A stretch of 64,000 bases of DNA from Escherichia coli. GTDB lineage: Bacteria; Pseudomonadota; Gammaproteobacteria; Enterobacterales; Enterobacteriaceae. Location of the stretch: assembly GCF_045037415.1 (NCBI RefSeq), contig NZ_CP173438.1; one strand, written 5' to 3'. The notes beneath the pieces were generated by a model. That model had not been told where the DNA came from, did no database searches, and saw only the letters and a program-made list of their open reading frames with translations. Positions 18,006-61,350 of this stretch are shown piece by piece. The position numbers and the translations under genes were made by a program. How positions within the stretch are numbered: position 1 is the first letter of the stretch; each line of letters begins with the position of its first letter.

Positions 18006-18094
18006 TTGCCGGATGCGGCGTGAACGCCTTATCCGGCCTACGGGACTGTTCATTTTGTAGGCCTGATAAGACACGCCAGTGTCGCATCAGGCAT
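18006..18094. repeat. BIME/REP composite element, copy 1 (araJ-mak intergenic)
   Basis: TTGCCGGATGCGGCGTGAACGCCTTATCCGGCCTAC...GTAGGCCTGATAAGACACGCCAGTGTCGCATCAGGCAT: paired, oppositely oriented REP palindromes of the GCCGGATGCGGCG type. Confidence 0.8.
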
Positions 18095-18134
18095 CGGAGC
18101 ACCGGGGGGTTGCCGCCACTGTGCGCGTTATTTG

Positions 18135-18224
18135 TTGCCGGATGCGGCGCGAGCGCCTTATCCGGCCTACCGGACGGCTCACTTTGTAGGCCTGATAAGA
18201 CGCGGCAAGCGTCGCATCAGGCAT
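18135..18224. repeat. BIME/REP composite element, copy 2 (tandem duplicate of copy 1)
   Basis: A near-identical ~90-bp unit 129 bp downstream of copy 1 (TTGCCGGATGCGGCGCGAGCGCCTTATCCGGCCTAC...GTCGCATCAGGCAT). Confidence 0.8.
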
Positions 18225-41858: not shown

Positions 41859-42821
41859 TTATTGCACGAAGCGCGAGGTAACGTACTGGCTGTAATCATT
41901 CGCTACAGCCGGGACTTTGCCCTGCTCTTTCAAAAACTGCGCGGTGTCGATGATCGCTTTGTTCACCGGTCCGGTCAGTTCTGCCGTTTGTTGCTGCGGC
42001 GTCAGATAGGTATTCCCCTTCACCAGCCCCGGAACGTCACCTTCCGGCACGCCGCTTAACCGCGCCAGTTTGCTGATGTTTTCCGGCTGTTTCAGCCACG
42101 CGTCTGGGTTAGCAATGTACGGTTGCTGAGCATCGATGGCGCTTTTAGCGAACGCTTTCACGACCTCAGGATGTTTCTCGGCAAAATCTTTCCGCACGAC
42201 CCAGACGTCCAGTGTCGGCGCGCCCCACTGCCCGACCTGTTCAGAATCGGTCAGCACCTTGCCATCTTTTTCCAGGGCGTTAACCGCCGGTGCCCATACA
42301 TAAGCACCATCAATATCTCCCCGCTGCCATGCGGCGATAATTGCGGGCGGCTGCAGGTTCACAATCTCAACTTGCCCAGGTTTAATACCCCAGTGTTTCA
42401 GCGCCGCCAGCAGGCTGTAGTGGGTGGTGGAGATAAACGGTACGGCGATGCGTTTACCAATCAAGTCTTCCGGTTTACTGATAGTTTTCTTTACCACCAG
42501 CGCTTCGGAGTTACCCAGTTTTGACGCCAGCAAGAAGACTTCAATCGGCACCTGTTGGCTGGTTGCAACCGCTAACGGGCTGGAACCGAGGTTGCCGATT
42601 TGCACATCGCCCGAAGCCAGCGCCCGCACGATGCTGGCTCCACTGTCAAACTTACGCCAGTCCACGGTTGCTCCGCTTTCTTTAGCAAAGGTGTTGTCGG
42701 CCTGAGCCACTTTCGCCGGTTCGGCGGAGGTTTGATACGCCACGGTGACGTTCACCGCTTGCGCCTGAAAAGCGATGAATGCCAGTGCGGCAAGAAATGT
42801 GTTACGCGATGAAATTGCCAT
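41859..42821 (-). CDS. tauA: Taurine ABC transporter periplasmic binding protein, 320 aa
   Basis: ORF translation MAISSRNTFLAALAFIAFQAQAVNVTVAYQTSAEPAKVAQADNTFAKESGATVDWRKFDSG... Confidence 0.95.
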   Translation of the reverse strand: MAISSRNTFLAALAFIAFQAQAVNVTVAYQTSAEPAKVAQADNTFAKESGATVDWRKFDSGASIVRALASGDVQIGNLGSSPLAVATSQQVPIEVFLLASKLGNSEALVVKKTISKPEDLIGKRIAVPFISTTHYSLLAALKHWGIKPGQVEIVNLQPPAIIAAWQRGDIDGAYVWAPAVNALEKDGKVLTDSEQVGQWGAPTLDVWVVRKDFAEKHPEVVKAFAKSAIDAQQPYIANPDAWLKQPENISKLARLSGVPEGDVPGLVKGNTYLTPQQQTAELTGPVNKAIIDTAQFLKEQGKVPAVANDYSQYVTSRFVQ

Positions 42822-43051
42822 GATTGTCTGCTCCCCCGTCTTGTTATGGGAGCAGTATTTCGTTGCGGGTAAGTTTGATAAAGGAATTAAAACGTCTTGT
42901 TAATAACAAAGCGTTTTTAGAAAAAAATCGGCAATGGTTAGCGAGTTTGCGCATTTTGCTACTTTTAACAAACATCGCCTGATGTGACGCTCACGCCTCT
43001 TATCATGCCTACAAATACTGGGGCCGGATAAATTTTATTCTCCAGTGTTAT

Positions 43052-43100
43052 ATACTATAGGGGGGTATGCATTGACATATAGCATACCCCCCTATAGTAT
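43052..43100. promoter_or_regulatory. FrmR operator: perfect 19-bp inverted repeat with G6/C6 tracts flanking an 11-bp spacer, overlapping the frmRAB promoter
   Basis: ATACTATAGGGGGGTATGC-ATTGACATATA-GCATACCCCCCTATAGTAT; arms are exact reverse complements; 27 bp upstream of the frmR ATG; the spacer contains TTGACA. Confidence 0.75.
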
Positions 43101-43126
43101 ATTGCGTGCAGATGATGAGGTGCGAA

Positions 43127-43402
43127 ATGCCCAGTACTCCGGAAGAGAAGAAAAAGGTCCTTACTCGAGTTCGTCGTATTCGGGGGCAGATTGATGCTCT
43201 GGAACGGTCGCTGGAGGGTGATGCCGAATGCCGTGCCATACTCCAACAGATCGCTGCCGTTCGGGGCGCGGCTAACGGACTGATGGCAGAAGTGCTTGAA
43301 AGCCATATCCGGGAAACGTTTGACCGAAATGACTGCTACAGCCGTGAAGTCAGCCAATCCGTTGACGACACTATTGAACTGGTTCGTGCCTATCTTAAAT
43401 AG
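43127..43402 (+). CDS. frmR: Formaldehyde-responsive repressor FrmR (CsoR/RcnR family), 91 aa
   Basis: ORF 43106..43402; internal Met gives [65 protein letters not shown]... Confidence 0.93.
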
Positions 43403-43406
43403 CTGA

Positions 43407-44546
<1,140 letters not shown>

Positions 44547-44638
44547 TTTCCCGCTGGTTTACCCCGTCCAGTTCAGATGGGGTTCTTAATACTCTCCCCG
44601 GGCAGCCGTCCGGGGGATTAACCGTGAGATAATGACTG

Positions 44639-45472
44639 ATGGAACTCATTGAAAAACATGCCAGCTTTGGCGGCTGGCAAAATGTGTATCGGCATTATTC
44701 CCAATCACTGAAATGTGAAATGAATGTCGGCGTCTATCTCCCCCCAAAAGCCGAGAATGAAAAATTGCCGGTGTTGTACTGGCTTTCAGGCCTGACCTGC
44801 AACGAGCAAAATTTCATTACTAAATCGGGGATGCAGCGTTACGCGGCTGAGCACAACATTATTGTTGTTGCGCCGGACACCAGTCCGCGAGGCAGTCATG
44901 TCGCAGATGCTGACCGTTACGATCTCGGGCAAGGTGCCGGGTTTTACCTGAACGCGACGCAAGCGCCGTGGAATGAACATTACAAAATGTATGACTATAT
45001 CCGCAACGAGCTGCCGAATTTAGTGATGCATCATTTTCCGGCAACGGCCAGAAAGTCAATCGCAGGTCATTCTATGGGCGGGCTGGGCGCGCTGGTGCTG
45101 GCGTTACGTAACCCAGATGAATATGTCAGCGTCTCGGCGTTTTCGCCCATTGTCTCCCCATCGCAAGTACCGTGGGGACAGCAAGCCTTTGCCGCATATC
45201 TTGGTGAAAATAAAGATGCCTGGTTGGATTACGATCCGGTGAGTCTTATTTCACAAGGTCAACGCGTTGCGGAAATCATGGTTGATCAGGGGTTGAGTGA
45301 TGATTTTTACGCGGAACAACTGCGGACTCCAAATCTTGAAAAGATCTGCCAGGAGATGAATATCAAGACGTTAATCCGTTATCACGAGGGTTATGATCAC
45401 AGCTATTATTTTGTCTCCAGTTTTATTGGCGAGCATATTGCCTACCACGCCAATAAACTGAATATGCGTTGA
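44639..45472 (+). CDS. frmB: S-formylglutathione hydrolase (esterase D family), 277 aa
   Basis: ORF translation MELIEKHASFGGWQNVYRHYSQSLKCEMNVGVYLPPKAENEKLPVLYWLSGLTCNEQNF... with GHSMGG catalytic serine motif. Confidence 0.95.
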   Translation: MELIEKHASFGGWQNVYRHYSQSLKCEMNVGVYLPPKAENEKLPVLYWLSGLTCNEQNFITKSGMQRYAAEHNIIVVAPDTSPRGSHVADADRYDLGQGAGFYLNATQAPWNEHYKMYDYIRNELPNLVMHHFPATARKSIAGHSMGGLGALVLALRNPDEYVSVSAFSPIVSPSQVPWGQQAFAAYLGENKDAWLDYDPVSLISQGQRVAEIMVDQGLSDDFYAEQLRTPNLEKICQEMNIKTLIRYHEGYDHSYYFVSSFIGEHIAYHANKLNMR

Positions 45473-45486
45473 GCATCCGCGCACGC

Positions 45487-45577
45487 ATGCCGGATGCGGC
45501 GTAAACCTTATCCGGCCCACATTTCGCTCGTAAACCGTAGGCCTGATAAGACGCGAAAAGCGTCGCATCAGGCATCT
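45487..45577. repeat. REP/BIME palindromic element cluster (frmB-yaiL intergenic)
   Basis: ATGCCGGATGCGGCGTAAACCTTATCCGGCC...GTAGGCCTGATAAGACGCGAAAAGCGTCGCATCAGGCAT: two oppositely oriented REP units. Confidence 0.75.
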
Positions 45578-46237: not shown

Positions 46238-47449
46238 TCAGGCATCGGCACACGGCTGCATTCTTGATCTCCGACTCATCAAAATAAACACCGCCAACCC
46301 AGCAACAAGAATACCCGGTGCAGAAGCGGCCATTACGCCGACCGTGCCAGTGCCTAATGCCAGCATTTTCCCGGCCAGTAACGGACCGCTCATAGCCCCC
46401 AGACGCCCTACCGCCACGGCTGTTCCCACACCTGTTGCGCGGATCTGCGAACTGTAAAACAACGGTGCCAGAGCATACAAAACGCTTTGCCCACCTGTCG
46501 CAAACAACCCCGCGACAAATCCCGCCAGCAACATACTGTTAAATGACGACACCGTTCCCAGCGCCAGCAGCGAAGCTAACATGCCGCTATAAATCAGTAG
46601 CGACATGGTTACTGGACGCAGTTTATCCATCAATGCGCCCAACATTAACGTCCCGCTTGCCGCCCCCATTTGCAGTGCAAACATCACCCCTGCCGCCTGC
46701 GATGGCTGGAATCCTTGCTCCACCAAAAGCAGCGGCAGCCAGTTGATCAACATGTAGACCACCAGCAGAGTGAAAAAATAACACAACCACAGCAGCAGCG
46801 TCGCGGTTGCCGTTTCTGGCGCAAATAACGCACGCAGTGGTGGCGCAGCCTGTTTTTCGCCAGCGAAAACCGTCGACTCCGGCAGCCAGCGCATTAATAG
46901 CGGCACCAGAATCAACGGCACCACACCACCTACCCAAAACACCGTTTGCCATGCTAAGTTTGCCCCCGCGAAACCCAGCGTCGCCGCCAGCGCCGCGCCA
47001 ATGGGAACACCGCAATACATCAGGCTCACTGCCGTCCCACGAAAACGTGGTCCCGCGGCTTCAGACGTCAGGGCGATAAGATTCGGCAACGCCGCCCCCA
47101 GCCCGACACCGGTCATCAGCCGCGCAAAGACCAGTGAGGGGAAATCCCATGCAATCGCCGTTGCCAGCGAGAACAAACCAAACAGCGCAACTGAGCCAAT
47201 CAAAATACGCTTACGCCCATAACGGTCTGCCAGCATCCCGCCAACCAGCGCGCCGGGTAGCAAACCGAGTATTCCGGCGCTAAATATCCAGCCCATTTGC
47301 ATTTTATCGAGTGCGAAAGCCTGGGCGATGCCACCCGCCGCAATGCCAGCCGCCTGAAGATCCAGCCCTTCCATCAGAGCGACCAAAAAACAAAGCCCGA
47401 TGGTCAGCATCAGGCGGGATGAAGATGATGAAGGGGTACGAGTCGACAT
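46238..47449 (-). CDS. mhpT: 3-(3-hydroxyphenyl)propionate transporter (MFS), 403 aa
   Basis: ORF 46238..47494; internal Met gives MSTRTPSSSSSRLMLTIGLCFLVALMEGLDLQAAGIAAGGIAQAF...; MFS motif GMLADRYGRKR. Confidence 0.9.
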   Translation of the reverse strand: MSTRTPSSSSSRLMLTIGLCFLVALMEGLDLQAAGIAAGGIAQAFALDKMQMGWIFSAGILGLLPGALVGGMLADRYGRKRILIGSVALFGLFSLATAIAWDFPSLVFARLMTGVGLGAALPNLIALTSEAAGPRFRGTAVSLMYCGVPIGAALAATLGFAGANLAWQTVFWVGGVVPLILVPLLMRWLPESTVFAGEKQAAPPLRALFAPETATATLLLWLCYFFTLLVVYMLINWLPLLLVEQGFQPSQAAGVMFALQMGAASGTLMLGALMDKLRPVTMSLLIYSGMLASLLALGTVSSFNSMLLAGFVAGLFATGGQSVLYALAPLFYSSQIRATGVGTAVAVGRLGAMSGPLLAGKMLALGTGTVGVMAASAPGILVAGLAVFILMSRRSRMQPCADA

Positions 47450-47527
47450 AAGATGAACCTCATTGCGAGTGCAGGTGAATCGCGACTGATACATTGCCAG
47501 CCGCGTAATCAGAACTATTTAATGACT

Positions 47528-47578
47528 GCCTACGGGCGAAATGTAGGCCGGATAAGGCGTTCACGCCGCATCCGGCAG
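47528..47578. repeat. REP palindromic element (mhpT-mhpE intergenic)
   Basis: GCCTACGGGCGAAATGTAGGCCGGATAAGGCGTTCACGCCGCATCCGGCAG. Confidence 0.75.
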
Positions 47579-47624
47579 TCGTGCTGGGATGGGCATACAA
47601 AATGCACGTTCTCGGCAGTCAATA

Positions 47625-48634
47625 TTATTTGTTGTTGCGCAGATCCAGCGCCACGTCGACGATCATATCCTCCTGGCCGCCAACCATCCGGCGTTTGCCC
47701 AGCTCAACGAGAATATCCACCGCGCTTAAGCCATAACGCGCCGCCGCCGTTTCACAGTGACGCAGGAAGCTGGAGTAAACACCAGCGTATCCCAGCGCCA
47801 GCGTTTCGCGATCGACTCGTACCGGTCGATCCTGCAACGGACGCACCAGGTCGTCAGCGGCATCCATTAACGCATAGAGATCGCCCCCATGCTGCCAACC
47901 CAGTTTATCCGCGGCGGCAATAAATACTTCCAGCGGCGCGTTACCTGCGCCCGCGCCCATTCCCGCGAGGCTGGCGTCGATTCGGTCGCAGCCCTCTTCC
48001 ACCGCCGCGATAGAATTCGCCACGCCAAGACTCAGGTTATGGTGAGCGTGCATGCCGGTTTGCGTTTCTGGTTTCAGCACTGCTTTCAGGGCGCGGAAAC
48101 GGTCACGGATATCGCTCATGTTCATCGCACCGCCAGAATCCACCACATAAATACAGGTCGCACCGTAGCCTTCCATCAGCTTTGCCTGCTTTGCGAGATT
48201 CTCCGGCGTGGTCATATGGCTCATCATCAGAAAACCAACGGTGTCCATTCCGAGCTCGCGGGCATACTGAATATGCTGGGCGGAAACATCAGCCTCGGTA
48301 CAGTGCGTTGCCACACGAACCACCCGCGCGCCAGCCTGCCAGGCATTTTTCAGATCGTGAATAGTGCCGATTCCTGGCAGCAACAACGTCGCGATTTTGG
48401 CGTGCTTCACCACATCCGCCGCCGCTTCAATCCATTCAAGGTCGCTATGTGCGCCGAAACCATAGTTAAAGCTGGAACCCTGCAAACCGTCGCCGTGGGC
48501 CACTTCAATCGAATCCACGCGGGCATCATCCAGTGCTTTGGCAATCTGGCGGACATTTTCCAGCGAATACTGATGACGAATGGCGTGCATACCGTCACGC
48601 AACGTGACGTCCGAAATATAAAGTTTTTTACCGT

Positions 48635-48638
<4 letters not shown>
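47625..48638 (-). CDS. mhpE: 4-hydroxy-2-oxovalerate aldolase, 337 aa
   Basis: ORF translation [52 protein letters not shown]... Confidence 0.95.
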
Positions 48639-50400
<1,762 letters not shown>

Positions 50401-51267
50401 TTAAGGGCGTGCGAGGAAATTCAGCACCAGTTGATTGAAAGCGTCGGCATGTTCCCACTGCGCCCAGTGACCACAGTCGCGGAAGATATGCAGTTCAGAA
50501 CCGGCAATGCCGGACAGCAGACGCAGACCCGCATCCATCGGCACAAAGCGGTCGTTGCGCCCCCAGACAATCAGGGTTTGCGCTTTGATTTCCGCCAGAC
50601 GTGGGCCAAAATCCGGGAACTGTTTCGGATTGGCTTCCAGGCTCTTAACGAAGTTTTCCAGGTGATCGCGGCGCGACAGCATATTATTCAGGCGCGCTTC
50701 AAACAGGGCGTCGGTCAAATCGCTGGTATCAAAAACGAAGATATCCATCATCAGCTTCAGGTTTTCGATAGTCGGCTGACGATAAAGCTGATTCAGTCGC
50801 TTAATACCTTCGGTTGGCATCGGCGTAAACAAACTCATGCCGCCCGTACCGCCGCCCATCAGCACCAGTTTGCCGACGCGCTCCGGCCAGTTAAGAGTGA
50901 ACGCCACAGAACTGTGGCCACCCATCGAGTTGCCCAGCAGGTGGATTTTGGCGATATCCAGTTGATCCACCACGCTTTTCAGGATTCGCGCATTAAGATC
51001 CGATCGCGAACCACTATTAACGATCGAATCGCTCTTACCCCAACCCGGACAATCCAGCAGGATCACCCGATAGCCCGCCTCTACCAGCGGATCGATATTG
51101 CGGCTGAAGTTCGCCCAGCCAGTAGCACCCGGGCCGGAACCATGCAGCAGGACAACGGTTTCGTCGCCTTGTCCGCAGTCATTAAAATGGATGCGCAGCG
51201 TTTTACCCGCTTCTTCTACATTCAGAAAACGGCTGGTGGCGGCTTCGGTTTGTGGCTGATAACTCAT
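50401..51267 (-). CDS. mhpC: 2-hydroxy-6-ketonona-2,4-dienedioate hydrolase (alpha/beta hydrolase), about 288 aa
   Basis: ORF 50401..51330; [54 protein letters not shown]... with GNSMGG nucleophile elbow; start uncertain (alternatives at 51282 or 51330). Confidence 0.9.
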
Positions 51268-51284
51268 CATCTTCTCCTGCATAT

Positions 51285-52229
51285 TCAGTTCTCTGTTCTG
51301 GCGCTTAACGAGCCAAATCCGGCAATCCACTCCGGGATTGGGCGGTAATAACGCCCTTCGCTACGCCAGTTGCCAAACGCAGAAATAGCGGCAAAAGCGG
51401 CGACCCAGGTTTTGATTTCATGTGTCGACTTTCCGGCAATGGCGGAAAGCTCTTCGTTACTGACGGCATCCAGTTCCTGTATGCGTCCCTGCTCCAGCAA
51501 AGTCATGAACTGGTTATCCCAAATCGGGTTGAGCGGATGCAGCGTTCTCTGATCCTCAACAAACTTCTCAGCGGCGCTAATCACCCGTTGCTGACGCAAT
51601 TCGCGCTCACTGGCGGGTAAATCTTTCCCGCTCCCCAACAGACGGTCGCGCATATGGGCATCGGCTTTCGCCAGTTCGGGCACCGGCGGCTGATGGGAAA
51701 GCCCACCGGAACCCAGGAACAGCACGCGTTTATTGAGAGTACTGGTGAAACGTCCAATGGCTTCCCCCAACATGCGGGTACGCTGGAAACCGGGCAGCGG
51801 CGTGGCGACACCGTTGATGAACACCGGCAGTACTGGCACCTTATCCAGCCCACCGAGCAGGAACTCCAGCGGCTGGGCGAACCCGTGGTCCACCTGCATA
51901 CAGTAAGAAACGGCAAGATCGATCCCGCTCTTCATGACGGCATGCGCACAGGCCTCCGCCAGCTCCACAGGCACGGGCAGCTCTCCTGCCGCACTGCCGA
52001 AATCACCAATTGCCGTCGCTCCAACGCCTAAACAGAACGGTGGCATCACGTCATAGAAAAAGCCGTTGTAGTGATCTGGCGCAAACAGCACCACCAGTTC
52101 AGGGGAGAAAGCCGCAATACGCTCGCGGGCGCTGGCAATCACGCCATTGACCTCATCGAGTACCTCTTGTGCCGGGTCGACATACCCCACCAGCGGCGAG
52201 TGGGAAAGACAGTGAAGATAAGCGTGCAT
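51285..52229 (-). CDS. mhpB: 3-(2,3-dihydroxyphenyl)propionate 1,2-dioxygenase (extradiol), 314 aa
   Basis: ORF translation [65 protein letters not shown]... Confidence 0.95.
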
Positions 52230-52230
52230 A

Positions 52231-53895
52231 TCAGGCTACCTTTTCGACAGAAACGTCGGCATCAGGGCGGGTCAGCGTCATCACCGACGCCAGTTTATTC
52301 AGGGTCTTGCCCAGGGTTTGCGGAATGGCGGTGGCGGCAACAAAGCGATCCGGGCGCATCACCACCAGCGAAGCATTGTGTTGCGCGAACCAGCTACGCA
52401 GGCGACCTTGCGTATCCCCCACGCGTAGTACGCCGTCGTGGTTATCCTGTGCGGTATGAATTTGCACTTCCGGCACCACCTGAATGAAGCGTGTGCCCAA
52501 CGCGCGCCACTGCTGGATTTGCTCGTCGCTCATCCCCCACAGTGGATTGCATCCCCAGCCAATTACCGCGAAGTTCGCGCCGATCGCGTTATCGAGTAGC
52601 GTCACGTCGCCGTTTTCCAGCGTGACTTTCGGCTGAATAAACATCTTGCCGACCGGAGAGTGCTTCGCTTCGCCCTCACGCACCAGCGCACCGCCGTAAT
52701 ATTGCGGCATCGGCTTGAAGCGCATTTCGAGGAAGTAGCGTTTTACTGGCGGCAGATAATTCAGCAGCCAGGAAACGCCGTCACGTAACGTACCCTGCCA
52801 GCGTTTCGGCGGAGCCAGCACGTTGCCCGCCGTCACGGACAGGTCAATCATCGCTTTGGCGTGATCGCGACGTTCTTGTTGATAGGTATCGAGCAGCGCA
52901 TCGCGGGCTTTCCCCTGGATAACCAACGCCAGTTTCCATGCGAGGTTAAAGGCGTCGCGCATACCACTGTTATAGCCCTGCCCCTGCCACACCGGCATGA
53001 TGTGCGCGGCATCGCCCGCCAGCAGTACGCGATCAATACGAAAACGTTGCGCCAGTCGCGCGTTGTGGGTGTAGACACGCTGGCGAATCAATTCAACATT
53101 GTCCGGATTAGGCAGCACTTTGCTTAACAGCTTGCGCATATTTTGCGGCTCACGCAGCTGTTCTTCGGTTTCTCCCGGCATCACCATAAATTCAAAGCGA
53201 CGTACCGCATGAGGCAGCGCGGCAGAAACATACGGGCGCACCGGATCACAACACAAATAGATATGCGGCGTACTTAACGGATCGTTGGCGATATCTACCA
53301 CAATCCACTGATTTGGCGCAGTTTTACCTTCAAACGGCACATTCAGGGTGCGACGGACAAAACTTGCCCCACCATCACAGGCCACCAGCCACTGGGCTTT
53401 GACCGTTTCCCGCTGCCCTTCTTCCGTTTTCAGGTGCAAGGTCACTTCGTCATCTTGCTGGCTGAAGGCCTCCAGCTCGCGGGAAAACAGGCAGCGCACA
53501 TTCGGAAAACGCGACAATCCTTCCAGCATCACCGCATCGACCTGAGGCTGAATAAAGGCGTTACGGCGCGGCCAGCCAAATTCATCGGTCATTGGCTGAA
53601 TATCAGCAAAACAGCGACCTTTTGGGGTGAGAAAACGCATCGCGTGCCACGGCGTAGTGTGCGGCAGAACATTATCGACCAGGCCAACCGACTGCATGGT
53701 GCGCAGCGCCTCGTCATCAATACCAATCGCACGCGGGTAGTCGATCAACTTATCGAGTTTCTCCACCACCAGCACGTCAATGCCCATCTGGCCGAGATAG
53801 TTCGCCATCATCAGCCCGACCGGACCGGCACCAGCGATCGCCACCTGAACGCTATGGTTAACAGCAGGCTGGATGTCAGGGTGTTGTATTGCCAT
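52231..53895 (-). CDS. mhpA: 3-(3-hydroxyphenyl)propionate hydroxylase (FAD monooxygenase), 554 aa
   Basis: ORF translation [47 protein letters not shown]... (FAD-binding GxGxxG). Confidence 0.95.
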
Positions 53896-54036
53896 TTCAG
53901 TACCTCACGACTCGGACAAAATGCCGTTGCGCGCACAGTACAGCGCAACTTATTTTGTTAAAAACATGTAAATGATTTTTTATTGTGCGCTCAGTATAGG
54001 AAGGGTGTTTTCGGCTACAATCAAAACATGCCCGAA

Positions 54037-54053
54037 TGTGCACCAGGTGCACA
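54037..54053. promoter_or_regulatory. 17-bp palindrome TGTGCACCAGGTGCACA, candidate MhpR operator in the mhpR-mhpA divergent region
   Basis: Perfect inverted repeat (8-bp arms around a central base) between divergent mhpR and mhpA; consistent with an IclR-type activator site. Confidence 0.55.
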
Positions 54054-54085
54054 ACGTTGTTTTAACTATATAAATGTCAATTAAT

Positions 54086-54919
54086 ATGCAGAACAATGAG
54101 CAGACGGAATACAAAACCGTGCGCGGCTTAACCCGCGGTCTAATGTTATTAAATATGTTAAATAAACTTGATGGCGGTGCCAGCGTCGGGCTGCTGGCGG
54201 AACTCAGCGGCCTGCATCGCACCACTGTGCGGCGACTGCTGGAGACGTTACTGGAAGAGGGATATGTCCGGCGCAGTACCTCCGATGACAGTTTTCGTCT
54301 GACCATCAAAGTGCGGCAATTAAGCGAAGGATTTCGTGACGAACAGTGGATTTCTGCACTGGCGGCCCCGCTGCTGGGCGATCTGTTGCGCGAAGTGGTA
54401 TGGCCGACAGATGTGTCCACGCTGGATGTTGATGCAATGGTGGTACGCGAAACCACCCATCGTTTCAGCCGCTTATCTTTTCACCGGGCAATGGTCGGGC
54501 GACGGTTACCGCTTCTGAAAACCGCCTCGGGCCTGACCTGGCTGGCCTTTTGCCCGGAACAAGAACGCAAGGAATTAATCGAGATGTTAGCCTCCCGCCC
54601 CGGTGATGACTATCAACTGGCACGAGAACCGTTAAAGCTGGAAGCCATTCTGGCGCGCGCGCGCAAAGAGGGGTACGGACAGAACTACCGCGGCTGGGAT
54701 CAGGAGGAGAAGATCGCCTCTATCGCCGTACCGCTGCGCAGTGAACAACGGGTGATTGGCTGTCTGAATCTGGTGTATATGGCGAGCGCAATGACCATCG
54801 AACAGGCAGCGGAAAAGCATCTTCCGGCGCTGCAACGGGTGGCAAAACAGATCGAAGAAGGGGTTGAATCGCAGGCTATTCTGGTAGCGGGAAGGCGAAG
54901 CGGCGTGCATTTACGCTGA
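54086..54919 (+). CDS. mhpR: IclR-family transcriptional activator of the mhp operon, 277 aa
   Basis: ORF 54074..54919; internal Met gives MQNNEQTEYKTVRGLTRGLMLLNMLNKLDGGASVGLLAELSGLHRTTVRRLLETL... Confidence 0.93.
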   Translation: MQNNEQTEYKTVRGLTRGLMLLNMLNKLDGGASVGLLAELSGLHRTTVRRLLETLLEEGYVRRSTSDDSFRLTIKVRQLSEGFRDEQWISALAAPLLGDLLREVVWPTDVSTLDVDAMVVRETTHRFSRLSFHRAMVGRRLPLLKTASGLTWLAFCPEQERKELIEMLASRPGDDYQLAREPLKLEAILARARKEGYGQNYRGWDQEEKIASIAVPLRSEQRVIGCLNLVYMASAMTIEQAAEKHLPALQRVAKQIEEGVESQAILVAGRRSGVHLR

Positions 54920-54995
54920 CACCATCGAATGGCGCAAAACCTTTCGTGGTATGGCATGATAGCGCCCGGAAGAGAGTCAATTCAGGGTGGTGAAT

Positions 54996-56078
54996 GTGAA
55001 ACCAGTAACGCTATACGATGTCGCAGAGTATGCCGGTGTCTCTTATCAGACCGTTTCCCGCGTGGTGAACCAGGCCTGCCACGTTTCAGCGAAAACGCGG
55101 GAAAAAGTGGAAGCGGCGATGGCGGAGCTGAATTACATTCCCAACCGCGTGGCACAACAACTGGCGGGCAAACAGTCGTTGCTGATTGGCGTTGCCACTT
55201 CCAGTCTGGCCCTGCACGCGCCGTCGCAAATTGTTGCGGCGATAAAATCTCGCGCCGATCAACTGGGTGCCAGCGTGGTGGTGTCGATGGTAGAACGAAG
55301 CGGCGTCGAAGCCTGTAAAGCGGCGGTGCACAATCTTCTCGCGCAACGCGTCAGTGGGCTGATCATTAACTATCCGCTGGATGACCAGGATGCCATTGCT
55401 GTGGAAGCTGCCTGCGCTAATGTTCCGGCGTTATTTCTTGATGTCTCTGACCAGACTCCCATCAACAGTATTATTTTCTCCCATGAAGACGGTACGCGAC
55501 TGGGCGTGGAGCACCTGGTCGCATTGGGTCACCAGCAAATCGCGCTGTTAGCAGGCCCATTAAGTTCTGTCTCGGCGCGTCTGCGTCTGGCGGGCTGGCA
55601 TAAATATCTCACACGCAATCAAATTCAGCCGATAACAGAACGGGAAGGCGACTGGAGTGCCATGTCCGGTTTTCAACAAACCATGCAAATGCTAAATGAG
55701 GGCATCGTTCCCACTGCGATGCTGGTTGCCAACGATCAGATGGCGCTGGGCGCAATGCGCGCCATTACCGAGTCCGGGCTGCGCGTTGGTGCGGATATCT
55801 CGGTAGTGGGATACGACGATACCGAAGACAGCTCGTGTTATATCCCGCCGTTAACCACCATCAAACAGGATTTTCGCCTGCTGGGGCAAACCAGCGTGGA
55901 CCGCTTGCTGCAACTCTCTCAGGGCCAGGCGGTGAAGGGCAATCAGCTGTTGCCCGTCTCACTGGTGAAAAGAAAAACCACCCTTCCGCCCAATACGCAA
56001 ACCGCCTCTCCCCGCGCGTTGGCCGATTCATTAATGCAGCTGGCACGACAAGTTTCCCGACTGGAAAGCGGGCAGTGA
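54996..56078 (+). CDS. lacI: Lactose operon repressor, 360 aa, GTG start
   Basis: Reading from the GTG at 54996 gives (M)KPVTLYDVAEYAGVSYQTVSRVVNQ...VSRLESGQ, the LacI sequence; ORF track starts 9 bp upstream. Confidence 0.97.
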   Translation: MKPVTLYDVAEYAGVSYQTVSRVVNQACHVSAKTREKVEAAMAELNYIPNRVAQQLAGKQSLLIGVATSSLALHAPSQIVAAIKSRADQLGASVVVSMVERSGVEACKAAVHNLLAQRVSGLIINYPLDDQDAIAVEAACANVPALFLDVSDQTPINSIIFSHEDGTRLGVEHLVALGHQQIALLAGPLSSVSARLRLAGWHKYLTRNQIQPITEREGDWSAMSGFQQTMQMLNEGIVPTAMLVANDQMALGAMRAITESGLRVGADISVVGYDDTEDSSCYIPPLTTIKQDFRLLGQTSVDRLLQLSQGQAVKGNQLLPVSLVKRKTTLPPNTQTASPRALADSLMQLARQVSRLESGQ

Positions 56079-59281: not shown

Positions 59282-60580
<1,299 letters not shown>

Positions 60581-60589
60581 GCAATCAAT

Positions 60590-60620
60590 GTCGGATGCGG
60601 CGCGAGCGCCTTATCCGACC
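60590..60620. repeat. REP palindromic element between lacY and lacA
   Basis: GTCGGATGCGGCGCGAGCGCCTTATCCGACC (inverted repeat GTCGGAT...ATCCGAC). Confidence 0.7.
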
Positions 60621-60645
60621 AACATATCAGGGCGGAATGATCGCA

Positions 60646-61269: not shown

Positions 61270-61350
61270 GCCTGATGCGCTCCGCTTATCAGGCCTACAA
61301 TTTCAGTGATCTACGTAGGCCGGATAAGGTGTTCACGCCGCATCCGGCAT
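61270..61350. repeat. REP/BIME palindromic element cluster filling the lacA-codA gap
   Basis: GCCTGATGCGCTCCGCTTATCAGGCCTAC...GTAGGCCGGATAAGGTGTTCACGCCGCATCCGGCAT: two oppositely oriented REP units between the convergent lacA and codA stops. Confidence 0.75.

Follow-up and report, generated by a model that had tools for sequence, protein, structure and literature searches.

The window, by which we mean the whole stretch of 64,000 nucleotides of Escherichia coli DNA that was analysed, carries the taurine transport gene tauA and the repressor gene frmR in divergent orientation on either side of a short spacer. The two genes and the features that we assign to the spacer between them are the following.

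41859..42821, minus strand: tauA, taurine ABC transporter periplasmic binding protein, 320 aa (open reading frame list and RefSeq annotation of AVS0343)
42822..42859, minus strand: tauA leader, common to all three alleles of the site; homology to K-12 and ATCC 25922 ends at 42859
42860..42959, minus strand: tauA upstream (promoter/activator-site) region of probable ancestral type, shared with OI-20, E1V33 and E. albertii
42960..43023, no strand: segment of the unoccupied allele only, the slot for yai or OI-20; no significant match in the ends of either islet
42977..43012 (36 bp), plus strand: decayed REP copy GCCTGATGTGACGCTCACGCCTCTTATCATGCCTAC, the REP consensus with 2 substitutions
43022..43031, plus strand: decamer GGCCGGATAA, straddling the right yai junction (homology resumes at 43024)
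43050..43070 and 43082..43102, plus strand: predicted FrmR operator, a perfect 21-nt inverted repeat with its arms 11 nt apart
43127..43402, plus strand: frmR, formaldehyde-responsive repressor, 91 aa, with its ATG at 43127

By the open reading frame coordinates the spacer measures 305 bp (42822..43126), and the RefSeq gene calls of AVS0343, a near-identical genome with 3 SNPs relative to the window across the first 59 kb, agree with this; the initial annotation, which had placed the starts of tauA (42821, minus strand) and frmR (43127, plus strand) only about 300 bp apart, was right on this point. The empty arrangement is contiguous in 595 complete genomes and is therefore real and not an artefact of assembly. 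A 106-bp junction is 100% identical in EC958 and in genomes labelled O25b:H4-ST131, and a 25-kb stretch of the window is found at 100% identity in several further genomes; from the exact matches to EC958 and the ST131-labelled genomes, the window is, as typed by sequence, ST131-like and of phylogroup B2 type. Its tauA is 99.5% identical to that of ATCC 25922 and 96.9% identical to that of K-12, and its FrmR protein is 100% identical to those of E. albertii and E. whittamii. Two divergently oriented control regions lie in the spacer, one on the tauA side (42822-42959) and one, comprising Pfrm and the operator, on the frmR side (43050-43102). We propose that the two would work independently of each other, with a short slot between them (about 42960-43034) that here holds only the decayed REP.

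The operator arms, ATATACTATAGGGGGGTATGC and GCATACCCCCCTATAGTATAT, each consist of ATAC, 9 G/C-rich bp, and GTAT, and a promoter scan places Pfrm in the operator, with the -35 element TTGACA at 43072-43077 and the -10 element TAGTAT at 43095-43100. Pfrm of E. coli has tandem type-1 sites that overlap the promoter, and both the binding of FrmR to K-12 Pfrm and its release by formaldehyde have been shown in vitro (Denby et al. 2016, PMC5146963). The promoter scan, the inverted repeat, and the published Pfrm agree, which bears out the earlier description of this spacer as a compact divergent control region with the FrmR operator, and on these grounds we assign 43050..43102 as a predicted FrmR type-1 operator (CsoR/RcnR family, DUF156). 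The operator is intact in all three states of the site, and the segment that contains it, 43024-43126, is 98-99% identical to K-12, ATCC 25922, and E. whittamii (98.1% to K-12). An Rfam scan of 42300-43700 gave no match to a known RNA family; the microRNA-hairpin matches that it returned on the operator palindrome are far below the gathering thresholds and were set aside as spurious.

DNA homology of ~83% to the frmRAB genes of Providencia, an Edwardsiella plasmid, Enterobacter, Pantoea, Aeromonas, and Morganella covers window 43046-45463; its left end, at 43046..43052, coincides with the left edge of the operator, and its right end is near the frmB stop. In none of these genera does tauA adjoin frmRAB. 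By its sequence, frmRAB appears to be a self-contained unit that has spread horizontally, and because the cross-genus homology starts at the operator edge, the variable slot would directly abut the edge of that unit. We speculate that this seam at the frmRAB edge may be why the spot is permissive.

On the tauA side, the leader contains an 8-bp stem, CTGCTCCC/GGGAGCAG (42828-42835 / 42848-42855), which lies over the ribosome-binding site and has been kept in every allele; we infer that the hairpin may have a role. Beyond the leader, the region 42860..42959 is 97% identical to EDL933 (the OI-20 allele), 98% to E1V33, and 92% to E. albertii. It contains a 14-nt inverted repeat, AAAACGTCTTGTTA/TAACAAAGCGTTTT (42889-42902 / 42904-42917), 68-96 bp upstream of tauA, which is a candidate LysR-type (T-N11-A) site. 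The Cbl/CysB sites presumably fall in 42860..42959, such sites having reportedly been described by van der Ploeg 1997, and the leader stem and the 14-nt repeat may both be linked to Cbl/CysB control. One ST131 genome, Ecol_AZ161 (L094), has an IS1 at the window equivalent of 42888-42896, inside the 14-nt repeat, with a 9-bp target duplication, TAAAACGTC.

The REP consensus reads GCC[G/T]GATG..CG ... CG[C/T]CTTATC[A/C]GGCCTAC. The segment 42977-43012 matches this consensus, is extragenic, and belongs to a multicopy family, as the strict REP pattern has 11 matches in the window and a looser pattern has 20, compared with 2.2 in shuffles. When folded, however, it reaches a minimum free energy of only -3.7 kcal/mol (z -0.85) and forms no REP-type hairpin, and since it has no hairpin we call it a decayed REP relic. 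A REP stands at the same position in E. albertii and is also in place in E1V33, and in NY1601 11 bp of the copy have been lost. The initial annotation had seen a REP-like fragment at the junction; a REP does exist there, just upstream at 42977..43012, but the decamer GGCCGGATAA itself cannot be demonstrated to be REP, and E. albertii has GACAGAATAA in its place, so that REP ancestry of the decamer is not supported. Elsewhere in the window, well-preserved REP/BIME clusters lie at 18008-18222, 45489-45573, 47543-47576, 60590-60623, and 61315-61348, and among these clusters is a REP pair just downstream of frmB.

We then compare the window with other E. coli. In K-12 MG1655 (NC_000913.3) the order is frmR, yaiO, yaiX split by IS2A, yaiP, ykiC, yaiS, tauA, which agrees with the map given in the initial annotation (yaiO, IS2-split yaiX, yaiP, and yaiS between frmR and tauA). 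Alignment with K-12 and other phylogroups confirms that the spacing differs, as 5,209 bp of K-12 (379985..385193) stand in place of 164 bp of the window (42860..43023). ATCC 25922, which belongs to phylogroup B2, has the yai block without IS2. EDL933 has neither the yai genes nor the short spacer and carries an 8,024-bp block where the window has 75 bp (42960-43034). This block codes for a response regulator, a MASE1 histidine kinase, a uhpC-like gene, and an ABC transporter, and it is O-island 20 (OI-20), that is, FusKR, the uhpC-like gene, and AfuABC; in OI-20, AfuABC lies beside the FusKR two-component system (Sit et al. 2015, PMC4546632). This third state, the OI-20 of O157, was absent from the account given in the initial annotation. 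The yai islet has 33-50% GC compared with 53-58% in the flanks, and OI-20, at 51-57% GC, is not atypical in base composition. The comparison of O-islands with K-islands reportedly originated with Perna et al. 2001.

The frmR-proximal junction was typed in 5,426 complete E. coli genomes, and this census gave the following counts.

yaiO-frmR junction: 4,278 genomes (79%)
afuC-frmR junction (OI-20): 451 genomes
Empty junction: 594-595 genomes (11%)
None of the three junctions: about 100 genomes, by subtraction

Most empty-site genomes belong to ST131 and the rest to a few further lineages, E2348/69 among them, and some of the unclassified genomes are IS-disrupted, for example DDG206, with IS1 and ISEc20 at the site. 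This survey of occupancy across the pan-genome finds yai, OI-20, or an empty spacer between tauA and frmR, and the proposal that the site is a variable islet thus holds: the content differs between the same conserved flank genes in K-12 and ATCC 25922, in EDL933, and in the window and AVS0343. The variation at tauA-frmR is ordinary accessory-genome variation and is already known, the O157 occupant having long been catalogued as OI-20. Literature searches on yaiO/yaiP/yaiS found nothing about the function or variability of the islet, and a search on OI-20 together with ST131 found nothing useful.

The exact limits of the three alleles can be read from the alignments. Compared with the yai allele (K-12 and ATCC 25922), homology to the window stops sharply at 42859, or at about 42937 if diverged homology is included, and resumes at 43024; compared with the OI-20 allele, it runs to 42959 and is back from 43035. 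The breakpoint had been placed near 42,980..43,050, and both pairs of limits replace that estimate. The interval 42860..42959 is common to the window and OI-20 and has no BLAST match in the yai alleles, and 43024..43034 is common to the window and the yai allele and is absent from OI-20. From 64–164 bp of the empty spacer, including the decayed REP, are missing from the occupied forms, and the segment 42960..43023 is kept in E1V33 (98.4%) and in E. albertii (89.8%). We also considered that OI-20 might have replaced exactly the REP, as there is weak similarity to 42973 and again from 43018, but shuffled sequences match the scores in 60/500 and 367/500 cases, so the sharp OI-20 limits of 42959 and 43035 stand.

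The ends of both islets were searched for target-site duplications and terminal inverted repeats, and neither was found at the ends of either islet; no repeat of at least 7 bp abuts both junctions. The yai allele does contain a 10-bp ATTTTATTCT repeat, but this is 30 bp and 8 bp off the ends and is probably due to chance in AT-rich DNA. The loose REP pattern finds no REP remnants near the junctions of the occupied alleles, so that the two kinds of trace for which the initial annotation had recommended a search, target-site duplications and REP remnants, are both missing from the junctions of the occupied alleles. Secondary IS insertions aside, no integrase or transposase is annotated within either islet at tauA-frmR, and the combination of a recombinase with abutting direct repeats that characterizes an integrative mobile element is not found there.

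The left-hand limit of the yai allele has a further consequence for tauA. Beginning 38 bp before the start codon, the yai alleles have a diverged counterpart of 42860-42937, which is ~55-60% identical and contains indels. When the segments L003:5138-5215 and L011:6017-6094, both from yai-type alleles, were compared with window 42860-42937, the similarity was reached by 0/500 shuffles for E. whittamii and by 4/500 for ATCC 25922. The similarity is therefore significant but diverged, and this indicates that a separate version of the tauA upstream region comes with the yai allele. The tauA promoter was reportedly characterized in K-12, in the 1997 tauA promoter work. As the yai-type upstream region, K-12 included, is only ~55-60% identical to that of the window, O157, and E. 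albertii, the promoter studied in K-12 is not the window's.

To decide which of the three states is the older type, we turned to outgroups, with a scan that covered one genome per non-coli species and from which E. fergusonii, E. marmotae, and E. ruysiae were absent. E. albertii NBRC 107761 has a collinear, gap-free 305-bp spacer that is 90.5% identical to the window end to end, with flanks at 87-92%; the E. albertii spacer has thus diverged in step with its flanks. Escherichia sp. E1V33 has the same collinear 305-bp spacer at 98% identity. The empty allele occurs on B2-type flanks in ST131, A42, E2348/69, and 382634_2f, and on clearly different flanks in NY1601 and E1V33, where the divergence of the flanks is of matching extent. 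A collinear outgroup spacer with flank-like divergence, as expected of an ancestral allele, is therefore what we observe, with one genome for each non-coli species. In the 21 non-Escherichia frmR loci tauA is never nearby (0/21), so these distant loci say nothing on the ancestral state of the spacer. We conclude that this site in Escherichia is variable, with three states, and that the 305-bp spacer is very probably its unoccupied allele of ancestral type. The initial annotation had allowed for either an ancestral or a deleted state of the islet; the first is favored by the collinear 305-bp spacers of E. albertii and E1V33, and the second fails because part of the spacer sequence is absent from the occupied alleles.

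This last point bears on the view that an ST131 ancestor lost a K-12-like yaiO-yaiS block by intrachromosomal deletion, so that the spacer would be a scar. The block is present in other B2 strains on flanks 99-100% identical to those of the window, and most E. coli genomes (79%) are occupied, both of which would fit such a loss. A scar, however, holds only sequence of the occupied allele, and this is not what the junction contains: the 164 bp at 42860-43023 are not in yai, save for the ~55-60% remnant of 42860-42937, and they are present and collinear in E. albertii and E1V33. Because sequence of the spacer is absent from both occupied alleles, a simple deletion is effectively ruled out, and we give it almost no credence. 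We consider it just as improbable that the empty form derives from the OI-20 allele by excision of OI-20 followed by insertion of the REP. It is true that 42860-42959 is common to the window and EDL933 (97%) and absent from yai alleles, and that elsewhere the OI-20 module adjoins a tyrosine recombinase, but the REP stands at the same position in E. albertii and therefore predates the diversification of E. coli. Moreover, no att-like repeats flank OI-20 at tauA-frmR, 43024-43034 is shared by the window with yai and not with OI-20, and what similarity is left at the ends of OI-20 is not significant when compared with shuffles.

Allelic replacement is a different matter, as it concerns only the route and is compatible with the reading of the spacer as the ancestral-type allele, which would then be ancestral in type and secondarily acquired. 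Here a B2 ancestor would have been occupied by yai, and the ST131 and E2348/69 lineages would have received the empty allele by homologous recombination from an unoccupied donor. We hold this to be possible, if somewhat doubtful. The divergence of yai parallels the phylogeny, pointing to vertical inheritance from an E. coli ancestor that was occupied; the empty allele is uncommon (11%) and scattered in its distribution; and the empty-specific segment is 98% identical between the window and E1V33, compared with 95-96.5% for the flanking genes. No imported tract is seen, however, as tauA, frmR, and frmA are 98.7-99.5% identical to those of a yai-bearing B2 strain right up to the junctions; the donor must have been another B2 strain, or the tract under about 300 bp; and the data are accounted for just as well if an old polymorphism was retained. 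Since ST131 is nested in B2 and yai-bearing B2 strains (ATCC 25922 and 536) have flanks 99-100% identical to those of the window, a gain, a loss, or an allele swap took place inside B2. Between B2 and K-12 the yai islet shows 94.6% identity, and the islet of E. whittamii matches at 92%, values that track the divergence of the flanks, so the yai allele is old as well. On such sequence comparisons, the common ancestor of E. coli may have been yai-bearing, or the site may have been polymorphic. ST131 could thus have come by its empty allele as a retained old polymorphism or through a short allelic replacement. The anatomy, the census, the junctions, and the states of the outgroups are shown by the sequences, whereas which way the change went inside B2, and recombination as its route, are what we infer.

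Our preferred reading, that the window has the ancestral-type allele, leads us to propose the following course. In most E. coli, the slot and part of the tauA upstream region would have been replaced by the yaiS-yaiP-yaiX-yaiO module, with an extra IS2 in K-12, and in O157 and its relatives the slot would have been replaced by the 8-kb OI-20 (FusKR, the uhpC-like gene, and AfuABC). The window would carry the allele that never received either cargo. As the cargo at the site has no integrase, terminal repeats, or target-site duplication, lineages would most likely swap alleles through homologous recombination within the tau and frm flanks, which are conserved.

Both modules also occur away from this site. 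An intact yaiS-yaiP-yaiX-yaiO module, ~90% identical, lies near cobU in the empty-site ST131 genomes OZ040091, E20, DA33135, and S14, and in NZ_OZ040091.1 (L087:7944-11150) this cobU/cobS-proximal yai island is located beside ibrAB-like genes and IS remnants. The cobU-type yai variant is found at >=99% identity (that is, at least 99%) in 831 genomes, and strain 536 has both yai copies, one at the tauA-frmR site and one of the cobU type. The statement that the yai block is missing thus applies to the tauA-frmR locus but probably not to the strain: since the empty-site ST131 genomes that were checked have the cobU-island copy, the yai genes would be absent from the locus of the window's strain and not from the strain itself. 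The afu (OI-20) module is found in another strain, at 94% identity, beside a tyrosine recombinase at the ula locus, and yai and OI-20 modules are also found on plasmids. From their presence in other islands and on plasmids, both modules appear to be portable cargo. At the site itself, IS elements are present in K-12 (IS2), DDG206 (IS1 and ISEc20), and Ecol_AZ161 (IS1), and the edges of the slot are a place of IS accumulation. In DDG206 (L092, 5782-6978), which is of the yai type, ISEc20, a member of the IS110 family, lies between yaiO and frmR, and IS1 lies between tauA and yaiS.

The window contains a second variable region, the mhp (3-hydroxyphenylpropionate) cluster from mhpT to mhpR at about 46238-55000, which is absent from further B2 genomes, among them ATCC 25922, IHE3034, and E2348/69; in B2 genomes without mhp, lacI directly follows yaiL, or query coverage falls to about 60%. 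The window's lacY encodes the standard 417-aa LacY, and AVS0343 has a 6-bp deletion in a TTCTTT repeat at 59376, at the 5′ end of lacY. The locus is rearranged in Escherichia sp. MOD1-EC7003 (L010): a tauD fragment and hemB, in inverted orientation, adjoin frmR and a truncated frmA, and no tauABC genes were detected within the part of the contig examined.

It follows from the preferred reading that K-12 is not the reference state for tauA-frmR; the arrangement of ST131, E2348/69, and E. albertii would be the original one, and the yai block of K-12 and the OI-20 of O157 would be alternative fillings of one slot. Because of the diverged copy in the cobU island, ST131 genomes that lack yaiO-yaiS at the locus should not be counted as having lost these genes. 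The junction sequences could provide a simple marker of lineage with three states. Transcription running on from yaiO or afuC, which point the same way as frmR, could alter frmRAB expression in occupied strains only. Findings on the K-12 tauA promoter may not carry over to strains with the ancestral-type upstream region, and if Cbl/CysB or sulphate starvation acts differently on the two promoter alleles, islet content would make taurine regulation differ by lineage. A broader claim, that the seam is a long-lived trans-species three-allele polymorphism in which a swap of cargo also swaps regulatory DNA of a core operon, we rate as rather unlikely. The finding matters little beyond bookkeeping, and the difference in the tauA upstream region between the K-12 type and the type of ST131, O157, and E. 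albertii is the point possibly worth testing.

Each part of the locus can be compared with a known system. The putative operator of the window has the same tandem ATAC-N9-GTAT architecture over the promoter as the K-12 FrmR type-1 operator, and nothing material differs, except that in the window it lies ~230 bp from the tauA start codon and not downstream of yaiO. Like the REP/BIME elements of E. coli, the copy in the spacer is extragenic and fits the consensus with 2 substitutions, and there are 10 other REPs in the window; unlike them, it is a single, decayed copy without a hairpin and not a BIME pair, and no function is implied. When the window is compared with OI-20 (EDL933/Sakai) and with the K-12 yaiO-yaiS segment, the site is the same, the flanks are conserved, and the FrmR operator is intact, but the window is without either cargo, with 75 bp in place of 8,024 bp and 164 bp in place of 5,209 bp. 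The site resembles the integration hotspots of the E. coli pan-genome in that the core genes stay fixed while the cargo between them changes, the cargo modules are found in other islands and on plasmids as well, and IS elements build up. Unlike such hotspots, the tauA-frmR site is without a tRNA, an integrase, or an att site, its islets are small (3.8 and 8 kb), and the yai allele also replaces part of the neighboring tauA promoter region.
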